Sequence record: OM632669.1
Direction: 5' to 3' (one strand)
DNA length: 64,000 nucleotides
Source: Escherichia phage BEU42
Below, in pieces: positions 50,840 to 52,517 of this stretch. The position numbers were made by a program, and so were the translations under genes. Positions within the stretch are counted from its first letter, which is position 1, and the number at the start of each line of letters is the position of its first letter. The notes below the pieces were generated by a model. That model did not search any database, had not been told where the DNA came from, and saw nothing but the letters and a program-made list of their open reading frames with translations.

Positions 50840-51343
50840 CTATTCAAACAGTTTACGGTCAGAACGAATCTGGTTCCCCAGTTCAATCAGTTGGTTATCA
50901 CGGAGTCTAACAGTTGCCCTGAGTTCTTCAACCAAACGTCTGCCTTCTTCAAGACTTGAGTCGAGTCTGGCTGCATGGCTTGCAAGATTGAGGCATTGAG
51001 TGGTTCCGGTTGAGGCTTGACGTTTATAACTCTCGGCTCGTTTTTCTGACTGGAGCAACCGACTATTGTACTGGTTAGTAATAGAATCAATAACGACTTC
51101 ATAAGACTCTTTGGCTTTATCAAGTCGAAGGGTAAGTTGCCCGACTTCATAACTGTGTTCCCGATTCTTTTGGTCATAAGCCAGTTTTACTCTATCAAGT
51201 TCTTTTGAGTACTCCTTCTTATCTTCATCCCATAGTGCTTGAACTTTCTTTTCACCATGTTGTGAACCAAGAAGAAAAAGGGTAGCTCCCAGAGCTACCC
51301 CTCCCAAAAGACATACAGTTAACTTAATTAACGATGTCTTCAT
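50840..51343 (-). CDS. i-spanin (Rz-like)
   Basis: ORF track start 51382; ATG at 51343 has GGAGAGG 5 nt upstream; N-terminal TM then charged coiled-coil. Confidence 0.45.
50887..51102 (-). CDS. o-spanin (Rz1-like lipoprotein) embedded out of frame within i-spanin gene
   Basis: [16 protein letters not shown] lipoprotein signal with lipobox IVGC; Pro-rich mature part; entirely nested in another frame. Confidence 0.5.
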   Translation of the reverse strand: MKSLLILLLTSTIVGCSSQKNEPRVINVKPQPEPLNASILQAMQPDSTQVLKKADVWLKNSGQLLDSVITN

Positions 51344-51950
51344 TACACCTCTCCAGAGGGACATTACCAATACGGTTAGCAATCCATCCTGTAGTGTACT
51401 CAGGCATATTAAGAGATAAATAGTAGTTTAACTGTTTACCATCCAGAGACTTCAAAATGAGCTTACAGGCTTCTACTTTGCCTCGTTTATTCTGAAGGCT
51501 CTTATATGCACTTAGAGTTCCAGAACCGACTTTACCATCAACTTGTATTTTAGGGTAGTCTTTGCCATTTCTGGAGAAAGCATTAAGAGATTCTTGTAAC
51601 CAACGAGATGGTCTTGCAGGTCCAGTATTAACACCAGCATCTACTAGTTTTTCTGTTACCGCCGGTGATACATCTGCAAACTTAACAAAGCCAGGCTTCA
51701 AGATGTAATCGTTGTAATAAATACTTGATGCCATTTCCTGAGTTAAGTTCTTCATTGAACCATCCCAGTTATACATCGACTCTAGTTCTTGCTTATGCTT
51801 TTGAGCAACCTGAATAGTTACACCATGATTAGTTTCACCTCCTGGGTCTTTGGGGTCATTAACGTATCCACCCTCAACAGCAAATACAGCAGCAATGATT
51901 GCTGCAATAACTCCTCCAACACCACCAACTTTCTTCTTACTTATTGCCAC
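51324..51950 (-). CDS. GH108-family lysozyme (N-acetylmuramidase-type endolysin) with N-terminal hydrophobic Gly/Ala-rich segment
   Basis: EGGYVNDPKDPGGETNHGVT matches GH108 signature; GTG start with AAGGAGG 6 nt upstream; residues 8-25 VGGVGGVIAAIIAAVFAV look SAR-like. Confidence 0.7.
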   Translation of the reverse strand: MAISKKKVGGVGGVIAAIIAAVFAVEGGYVNDPKDPGGETNHGVTIQVAQKHKQELESMYNWDGSMKNLTQEMASSIYYNDYILKPGFVKFADVSPAVTEKLVDAGVNTGPARPSRWLQESLNAFSRNGKDYPKIQVDGKVGSGTLSAYKSLQNKRGKVEACKLILKSLDGKQLNYYLSLNMPEYTTGWIANRIGNVPLERCNEDIVN

Positions 51951-52200
51951 ACCAATCCTCCTTTGGTTTCAAACGAACCAGTCGGCAAATAATATTCAGC
52001 ACAAAGAGTGCTATAGCAATGTTATTGCCATGTGGAATATCTTTGAGGATATGTTGGGGTAATGCAGAGAAAGAACTGGATAAGGCATCCACACAAGAGA
52101 AGAACAATATTGCTAATGTGCTAATCTGAATAGATGCCCATTTCCAACAACGTTTCCAATTAGGAACCATTTCCACATGTTTGGTTAACTTGCGAACCAT
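51937..52200 (-). CDS. holin-like protein (2 TM)
   Basis: ATG at 52200 with GGGAGA 7 nt upstream; two hydrophobic helices; directly upstream of endolysin. Confidence 0.35.
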   Translation of the reverse strand: MVRKLTKHVEMVPNWKRCWKWASIQISTLAILFFSCVDALSSSFSALPQHILKDIPHGNNIAIALFVLNIICRLVRLKPKEDWCGNK

Positions 52201-52517
52201 GCAAAAATCTCCCGTCTGGCAGCAGCCAGTATACCAATAATGATACCTGCTCCAGCCCATACCCATTTACCAAACAATCCAGCACCAACAACTTTATGTT
52301 TGATGGTAATGAACTCTTCAATAGTAGGGGCAGACTCAGCCAGAGACTTTTCTACATTCTCCAGTCGAGTGTCCATCTTATTAATAGACAGTTGAAGGTT
52401 ACGTACAGCATCATCTAAATCTTGCCGAGATTTAGCATCACGGGCATTATTTTCGAAGAGTGTCTTCATACGTTCCTCCATTCGAGCTAGGAGCACCTCT
52501 ACGGATTCATGACTCAT
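52185..52517 (-). CDS. membrane-anchored coiled-coil protein (lysis regulator candidate)
   Basis: 110 aa; N-terminal helical region, C-terminal TM VVGAGLFGKWVWAGAGIIIGILAAA. Confidence 0.35.
   Translation of the reverse strand: MSHESVEVLLARMEERMKTLFENNARDAKSRQDLDDAVRNLQLSINKMDTRLENVEKSLAESAPTIEEFITIKHKVVGAGLFGKWVWAGAGIIIGILAAARREIFAWFAS

Follow-up and report, generated by a model that had tools for sequence, protein, structure and literature searches.

The region between positions 50840 and 52517 on the minus strand of Escherichia phage BEU42 (sequence record OM632669.1, of which a stretch of 64,000 nucleotides, hereafter the window, was analysed) is the lysis cassette of an N4-type coliphage, a model phage system. 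Its five genes, named as their counterparts in phage N4, are gp63, gp62, gp61, gp60 and, embedded in the last of these, gp60a. Together they very probably make up a pinholin / signal-anchor-release (SAR) endolysin / two-component spanin system of the late (minus) strand, a reading to which we assign a probability of roughly 0.87. An earlier, sequence-only reading had proposed a lysis cassette at this place, and this is borne out by domain and PHROG matches as well as by experiments with the N4 proteins. The cassette is already known and experimentally characterised, with experimental roles for all five genes. What remains new comes from comparison, namely the range of endolysin types with which gp63 homologues occur, a probable shadow open reading frame (ORF) that extends gp62 upstream, and a hairpin upstream of the cassette.

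Identity with the N4 lysis region

A megablast comparison of positions 50700-52700 with phage genomes gave 100% identity to Escherichia phages BEU5, BEU13, BEU14 and BEU44, and 99.5% identity to Escherichia phage N4. The N4 counterpart lies at 56976-58653 of NC_008720, and gene order, coordinate offset, overlaps and start codons are all shared with the window. There are 7 nucleotide differences over the 1678 nt of the cassette; gp60, gp60a, gp61 and gp63 are identical as proteins, and gp62 differs by a single substitution, V61A (in the numbering of a 109-residue form discussed below). Since four of the five proteins are identical and the fifth carries one change, experiments performed with N4 transfer directly to the window, where the sites of rapid-lysis mutations in N4 (G12 of gp61, T65 and T71 of gp63) are wild type. 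A preprint from the Ramsey laboratory is devoted to these N4 genes, and it finds that gp60-63, cloned together, bring about lysis of E. coli in about 25 min (Awuah et al., bioRxiv 10.1101/2025.11.12.688109). RefSeq labels gp59 of N4 portal protein, gp60 "Rz-like spanin", gp61 "endolysin" and gp62 "holin"; gp63 is given no function, and gp64 follows.

A survey anchored on gp63 covered 64 loci, i.e. 57 from IMG/VR, 6 GenBank relatives (G7C, KP8, Piffle, phiAxp-3, Zuri and Ea9-2) and the window itself. The full order of gp63, gp62, GH108 endolysin and inner- and outer-membrane spanin (i-spanin and o-spanin) was found in 49/64. This repetition, together with 99.5-100% identity to N4-type phages, argues that the cassette is not a product of chance.

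On this basis, lysis in the host of BEU42 would proceed as follows. After export, gp61 would stay inactive as long as its N-terminal segment, which is Gly/Ala-rich and weakly hydrophobic, keeps it in the inner membrane. Gp63, built from a C-terminal transmembrane domain (TMD) and a long cytoplasmic heptad-repeat helix (a probable coiled coil), would accumulate and then trigger, depolarising the membrane through small lethal holes, as has been shown in N4. Depolarisation would lead to the release and refolding of gp61 and to cleavage of murein by its N-acetylmuramidase activity (likewise shown in N4), and the gp60/gp60a spanin complex would finally disrupt the outer membrane, a role shown by complementation. 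Gp62 would act as an accessory, late hole-maker and, as the authors of the preprint propose, may drive the slow exit from lysis inhibition. Lysis inhibition itself is thought to block gp63 via a conserved juxtamembrane segment, the "Receiver".

The genes are tightly packed (Table 1). As the sequence-only reading had stated, all of them overlap, by 16 nt (gp63/gp62), 14 nt (gp62/gp61) and 20 nt (gp61/gp60), with gp60a nested in gp60; a gap of 8 nt separates gp60 from the portal gene.

Table 1. Coordinates of the lysis cassette and associated elements, given as positions in the window.
Feature	Position	Strand	Basis
Terminator-like hairpin, gp64-gp63 intergenic	52534..52555	-	fold and comparative scan
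gp63, 110 aa, pinholin and lysis-inhibition control point	52185..52517	-	identity to N4 gp63; N4 experiments
gp62, 87 aa, two TMDs, dispensable lysis regulator, holin-like at late times	51937..52200	-	Pfam DUF7940, PHROG "holin"
In-frame 5' extension of gp62 (109-aa ORF, MGMGWSRY...), probably non-coding in its own right	52201..52266	-	
AAGGAGG Shine-Dalgarno sequence of gp61, 6 nt before GTG	51957..51963	-	sequence
gp61, 208 aa, GTG start, SAR endolysin: GH108 N-acetylmuramidase and PG_binding_3	51324..51950	-	Pfam
SAR segment of gp61, residues 8-25 (VGGVGGVIAAIIAAVFAV), KKK before	51876..51929	-	hydropathy, composition
gp60 i-spanin, 167 aa, ATG start	50840..51343	-	phrog_6197, TMD
gp60a o-spanin, 71-aa precursor, inside gp60 in +1 frame	50887..51102	-	lipobox, phrog_3198/812

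Divergence from N4 is uneven along positions 49200-54200, at about 0.4% in the lysis cassette compared to 1.5% in the portal gene and 2.2% in gp64; gp60/gp60a show 0 differences in 504 nt. Overlapping reading frames or recent exchange could account for the low divergence of the cassette.

Roles of gp63 and gp62

The sequence-only reading had described gp63 as a 110-residue, C-terminally anchored coiled-coil protein, and both parts of this description hold. Residues L, I, V or M occupy all 8 a/d heptad positions of a 28-residue stretch starting at about residues 32-34, a pattern found in 0/500 shuffled sequences, and the only hydrophobic segment is C-terminal (residues 81-99). An AlphaFold2 model, with a mean predicted local distance difference test (pLDDT) score of 72, features helices at residues 4-61 and 66-109. 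The conserved, juxtamembrane "Receiver" segment reads PTIEEFITIKHKVVGAG. The protein matches phrog_5211 at 3e-50, while a Pfam scan of gp63 returned no Pfam family.

The function suggested earlier for this protein, that of an antiholin or lysis regulator, is contradicted by experiments with N4 gp63, which is lethal alone, promotes lysis, and complements the S21 pinholin of phage 21 but not lambda S105 (bioRxiv 10.1101/2025.11.12.688109). After addition of carbonyl cyanide m-chlorophenylhydrazone (CCCP), triggering by gp63 is irreversible, with colony-forming units (CFU) down by more than 99% and no recovery. The gene is conditionally essential in N4, and six changes that arose spontaneously and give rapid lysis are grouped beside its TMD. 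In the terms of Awuah et al., gp63 is the N4 pinholin and also the point at which lysis inhibition is controlled. A topology of the S21 type, i.e. two TMDs of which TMD1 leaves the membrane, was looked for in gp63, and one C-terminal segment was found. Unlike S21, gp63 combines this single TMD with a cytoplasmic domain of about 80 residues, mostly heptad-repeat helix. Functionally, gp63 is comparable to a pinholin, but it falls outside the S21 family. A dual start resembling that of lambda S107/S105, at Met13 or Met17 of gp63, was also considered and rejected, as both residues are Leu in the family consensus and therefore not conserved.

For gp62, the start at position 52200 and the two TMDs proposed by the sequence-only reading stand, whereas its length of 88 residues does not: the ORF of 264 nt including the stop codon encodes 87 residues, the higher figure having counted the stop. 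The ATG is preceded at 8 nt by a GGAG Shine-Dalgarno (SD) motif. This form has two hydrophobic peaks, starting at residues 24 and 61, and the protein displays the topology of a class II holin, with two TMDs, an N-in/C-in arrangement, a basic N-terminus and a charged KPKED tail. Its family matches are DUF7940 in Pfam and phrog_1356, a "holin" family, in PHROG (5e-28). The earlier division of labour, with gp62 as holin and gp63 as its regulator, was a reasonable guess that matches many GenBank annotations, but it is contradicted by experiment and is in fact the reverse of what was found. In N4, gp62 is dispensable, and its holin-like activity is late and gradual, appearing only after about 2 h; the authors describe it as a "lysis regulator" (bioRxiv 10.1101/2025.11.12.688109). 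The candidate holin has thus turned out to be largely non-lytic with the endolysin.

A more formal version of this division would make gp62 a class II holin or pinholin that releases gp61, and gp63 an antiholin or negative timing regulator. Topology and the phrog_1356 match fit such a role, many records call gp62 a holin, and the Piffle record labels its gp63 "putative antiholin". Moreover, N4 gp62 is lethal after CCCP and eventually releases both SAR and soluble (lambda) endolysins (bioRxiv 10.1101/2025.11.12.688109), and the rapid-lysis mutations in gp63 could in principle represent loss of an inhibitor. Other N4 data point the other way. Gp63 alone is immediately lethal and substitutes for S21. 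Deletion of gp62 leaves plasmid-driven lysis unchanged, whereas deletion of gp63 from the same plasmid cassette delays it; gp63-deleted N4 was recovered only with compensating mutations in the SAR segment of gp61; and more than 60 isolates with rapid lysis included none whose mutation mapped to gp62 (bioRxiv 10.1101/2025.11.12.688109). In addition, gp63 homologues persist in cassettes that have no gp62. A holin role for gp62 with gp63 as its inhibitor is therefore highly unlikely, and already largely refuted.

Alternatively, gp63 might form no holes and instead pull the SAR domain of gp61 out of the membrane as a dedicated activator or "releasin", in the manner of gp25 and the SAR endolysin of phage Mu. 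A releasin has reportedly been described for that phage. The preprint on N4 cites an unpublished thesis in which gp63 is described as an activator of gp61 (bioRxiv 10.1101/2025.11.12.688109). Nevertheless, gp63 works with the unrelated SAR endolysin of phage 21 and kills in the absence of any endolysin, and its homologues head cassettes with SAR-less endolysins (Amidase_2, GH24, Hydrolase_2, PF11860), which argues against a SAR-specific partner. We consider extraction by gp63 barely credible.

Several points nonetheless weigh against gp63 as the pinholin of a SAR system. It has one TMD compared to two in S21, and its orientation is ambiguous to predictors; the size of its holes was inferred from complementation; and the key functional source is a preprint, in which gp62 phenotypes are incompletely complemented and gp63 deletion lacks a clean study. 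Beyond N4, there are at least 12 loci among the 64 in which the endolysin encoded together with a gp63 homologue is not of the GH108 type and carries no N-terminal hydrophobic segment. Since a pinhole alone could not release soluble endolysins, the term "pinholin" may not fit the whole gp63 family.

The control of lysis through gp63 is reminiscent of lysis inhibition in T4 (holin T, antiholins RI and RIII), in that superinfection postpones lysis in both cases through an effect on the holin. The two systems share no proteins, however, and the proposed receiver of N4 is cytoplasmic and juxtamembrane in gp63. One question of interest is by what means a protein anchored through a single C-terminal TMD sets the time of lysis and perceives the inhibition signal that lies behind the bursts of about 3000 particles of N4.

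A caution for annotation also follows from this cassette: the "obvious" candidate with two TMDs does not serve as the main holin in this case, and gp63 homologues are widely mislabelled or left as hypothetical. Besides the antiholin label in Piffle, they appear as "tail length tape-measure protein" in KP8, U1G, Bp4, ZQ2 and others, and JGI names include "chromosome segregation ATPase" and "DUF342". Such tape-measure and ATPase labels are evidently a coiled-coil artefact that has spread between records. One homologue, P0066, which is 69% identical to the N4 protein over an aligned 85% of its length, is found on a 2.76-Mb NCBI contig labelled Enterococcus faecium. As gp63 proteins are otherwise confined to phages of Gram-negative hosts, this placement is suspect and looks like contamination or misassembly.

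The start of gp62 deserves separate comment. The mechanical ORF list contains a 109-residue form starting at 52266, and this longer form is also used in the preprint (bioRxiv 10.1101/2025.11.12.688109). The two ATGs of the longer ORF stem from a reading, shifted by one base, of the codons for the conserved K-W-V-W of gp63 (AAA TGG GTA TGG). In the window, the ATGs of the 22-codon extension have no SD-like motif, nor was one found in 5/6 of the GenBank or window loci in which the extension is open; counting a motif anywhere in the extension, 8/29 extension-bearing cassettes have one. The extension starts with GTG in G7C and KP8, and 20/49 cassettes have no upstream start in the gp62 frame. The position of the first core ATG, corresponding to 52200, is conserved, with an SD-like motif in 32/43 cassettes. 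The 109-residue form is thus probably an out-of-frame shadow, i.e. an artefact of overlap with the GKWVW codons of gp63, and sequence comparison supports the 87-residue start of RefSeq and of the sequence-only reading. An ORF start reading "MGMG" also occurs in KP8, phiAxp-3 and Ea9-2, as a shadow of the same GKWVW motif, and is absent in Piffle and Zuri. A dual start of gp62 at Met11 was rejected, this residue being Leu in G7C and KP8 and thus not conserved.

The gp61 endolysin and the embedded spanins

What the sequence-only reading had said of gp61, a GH108 muramidase with a GTG start, a strong ribosome binding site and a Gly/Ala-rich N-terminus of the SAR type, is upheld by domain matches and by N4 experiments on the identical protein. 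The Glyco_hydro_108 domain (PF05838) covers residues 20-110 (E 8e-23, 81.2 bits compared to a cut-off of 21.2), and PG_binding_3 (PF09374) residues 113-193 (E 5e-9, 36.7 bits compared to 24.6). A motif consisting of E26-G-G-Y and D35-P-G-G-E-T is present and aligns with the same motif in the structures 6v3z, 6v40, 7dnp and 2ikb. Glu26 is reportedly the catalytic residue (Stojkovic & Rothman-Denes 2007), and N4 gp61 is the founding enzyme of the GH108 family. Over the 19 residues 8-26, which follow KKK, Kyte-Doolittle hydropathy (KD) averages 2.17 and Gly+Ala make up 47%; the maximum mean KD over 16 residues is 2.56. The segment runs straight into Glu26. All 50/50 GH108 endolysins of related cassettes show the same arrangement, with a basic and then Gly/Ala-rich hydrophobic N-terminus leading into EGG[YFWE]. 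Four of them (L016-L019 of IMG/VR, in otherwise standard cassettes) have EGGE in place of EGGY/F/W directly after the SAR segment.

Experimentally, N4 gp61 can replace a defective endolysin behind the large-hole holin lambda S105 as well as behind the pinholin of phage 21 (R21 amber). Expressed alone, it causes slow, gradual, holin-independent lysis, and the authors conclude that it is a SAR endolysin. The change G12E in the SAR segment leads to rapid lysis. The preprint further cites Stojkovic & Rothman-Denes 2007 for gp61 as a membrane-associated muramidase (bioRxiv 10.1101/2025.11.12.688109).

Comparison with soluble relatives gives a clue to how tethering may silence the enzyme. Residues 13-25 of gp61 align with the N-terminal residues directly before EGGY in GH108 crystal-structure chains of soluble proteins ("GTFAKAMPHVFSDEGGY" in 7dnp, "DEIFAAILSREGGY" in 6v40 and "INRVLSHEGGY" in 2ikb). 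The C-terminal half of the SAR segment, and hence part of the membrane anchor, would then belong to the catalytic domain, with Glu26 at the end of the anchor. Because this half matches the residues that precede EGGY in the soluble chains, tethering probably leaves the active site and catalytic domain incomplete until release. For R21, an analogous arrangement of SAR segment and active site is said to have been demonstrated structurally. The residues VFA-VE at about positions 22-26 (hyphen marking the cut) could in principle fit the -3/-1 cleavage rule.

The closest functional parallels are S21/R21 of phage 21 and Lyz of phage P1, in which an endolysin tethered by a Gly/Ala-rich anchor is freed by depolarisation; indeed, gp63 complements S21, and gp61 works behind it. 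The composition of the gp61 SAR segment is similar to that of the reference N-termini of R21 and P1 Lyz. Unlike these enzymes, gp61 has a GH108 fold rather than that of a T4-type lysozyme, and there is no sequence similarity.

The claim of an i-spanin with a fully embedded, out-of-frame o-spanin lipoprotein (lipobox IVGC) is likewise confirmed, by position (50887-51102 inside 50840-51343) and by complementation in N4, where gp60/gp60a fully complement lambda Rz/Rz1 amber mutants (bioRxiv 10.1101/2025.11.12.688109). The mechanical ORF list begins gp60 at a TTG at 51382, but the true start is the ATG at 51343. The protein features an N-terminal TMD (residues 8-26, KD 2.15), a periplasmic helical domain of about 140 residues and one Cys (C117), and matches phrog_6197 "Rz-like spanin" at 5e-68. 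A 14-bp hairpin lies inside the gene at 51305-51275, in the region coding for the TMD. Gp60a has a signal peptide of 15 residues followed by Cys16, with Ser17 at +2, and a mature lipoprotein of 56 residues. It occupies 0.48-0.91 of the length of gp60 in the +1 frame, which matches the typical position of embedded o-spanins, from 0.4-0.5 to 0.9-1.0 of the i-spanin (PMC6139136). In 56/56 related spanin pairs, the nested gene uses the +1 frame and encodes a lipoprotein with a lipobox, the o-spanin lying at about 0.49-0.91 of i-spanin length; the AlfredRasser record annotates an o-spanin at the gp60a position with a longer start.

The pair thus resembles lambda Rz/Rz1 in the N-terminal TMD of its i-spanin and in an o-spanin lipoprotein embedded in the +1 frame. 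It differs in belonging to another sequence family (phrog_6197), and in that the only Cys of mature gp60a is the lipidated one, while gp60 has a single periplasmic Cys. Among two-component spanins, 507/528 have at least one Cys, and disulfide links have been argued to be near-universal (PMC6139136). Among the related pairs examined here, 10/50 have no periplasmic Cys in either component (L006, L007, L028, L029, L052 and others), and Cys seems dispensable within the N4-type spanin family.

Breadth of the gp63 family and surroundings of the cassette

A gp63 homologue is the constant first gene of the cassette in 64/64 loci, an invariance that fits its central role. A HMMER profile search of 1.84 billion sequences yielded 205 representatives of the family at E<=1e-3, nearly all of 100-125 residues; the conserved juxtamembrane motif of gp63-type proteins is PT..EF..K..V.GAG.LGKW.W. 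The family is not covered by Pfam, and the only contact was a faint one with DUF1515, touched by 4 of the 62 weakest matches listed.

The second gene and the endolysin are less constant. Endolysins other than GH108 comprise Amidase_2 (L031), Phage_lysozyme/GH24 (L041, L047, L049, L050, L056 and L062), SleB-like Hydrolase_2 (L045 and L060) and Muramidase PF11860 (L063), and in none of them does the mean KD of a 16-residue stretch exceed 1.17, compared to a maximum of 2.56 in gp61. Most of these cassettes have no gp62 and feature a different second membrane protein with 1-2 hydrophobic peaks, often located after the endolysin; the Hydrolase_2 cassettes are alone among them in keeping a gp62-like protein. 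The role of gp63 in such relatives with soluble endolysins is a second question of interest.

One answer would be that gp63 proteins are general lysis timers or triggers, and that a partner, either gp62 or a non-homologous replacement, makes the hole for a soluble endolysin, as in the XhlA-XhlB pair of PBSX-type cassettes. At least 12/64 loci do combine a gp63 homologue, a soluble-type endolysin and a different membrane protein, and N4 gp62 is able to release the soluble endolysin of lambda. XhlA (PF10779), from Bacillus phages of the PBSX and Wbeta types, is a protein of 75-93 residues in which a coiled coil at the N-terminus is combined with a TMD at the C-terminus, and its gene is the first of a cassette directly after the tail genes, followed by holin and endolysin (amidase) genes; size, architecture and position are thus all shared with gp63. 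In N4, however, gp63 suffices with a SAR endolysin, and homology to XhlA is unsupported: no Pfam XhlA match was obtained for gp63 and 68 relatives (6 close, 62 distant), whereas 5/5 control XhlA proteins matched, and a profile-profile comparison (hhalign) gave a probability of 26%. Two weak PHROG "hemolysin" matches of gp63 were seen (E ~1e-3). Homology was therefore rejected, and XhlA, whose hosts are Gram-positive whereas those of gp63 are Gram-negative, is kept as the closest architectural analogue that was found. We regard the general-timer view of the family as unlikely, though it carries some weight.

A broader formulation, offered with low confidence and with the odds against it, is that gp63-type proteins may represent a distinct class of tail-anchored lysis triggers that head N4-like cassettes whatever the endolysin, the pinholin of N4 being a special case. 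In Gram-negative hosts, such proteins might then do the job that XhlA does in Bacillus phages, and signals that time lysis might enter through the cytoplasmic domain.

Upstream of the cassette, a terminator-like hairpin was identified on the minus strand at 52534-52555, with the sequence AGAGCCGGG-GATA-CCCGGCUUU followed by UUCAAU. Its GC-rich stem of 9 bp ends 16 nt before the ATG of gp63, and the region has a z-score of -2.5. A strict scan detected comparable hairpins (e.g. at 1396-1432 of L005) upstream of gp63-like genes at 18/61 loci, compared to 3/1494 control windows; a lax scan had a background of 27%, and a generic scan missed the hairpin at 52534-52555. The GenBank record of Piffle has a terminator annotated at the same place, and the preprint (bioRxiv 10.1101/2025.11.12.688109) makes no mention of an upstream hairpin. 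The element is likely a boundary, terminator or attenuator upstream of the cassette, and its recurrence suggests that a terminator or attenuator before the lysis genes is conserved.

On a larger scale, the cumulative GC skew of the window peaks near 28 kb, marking a switch in the direction of the coding strand. This fits the layout of N4, in which early and middle genes occupy one strand and late genes, including the lysis cassette, the other.

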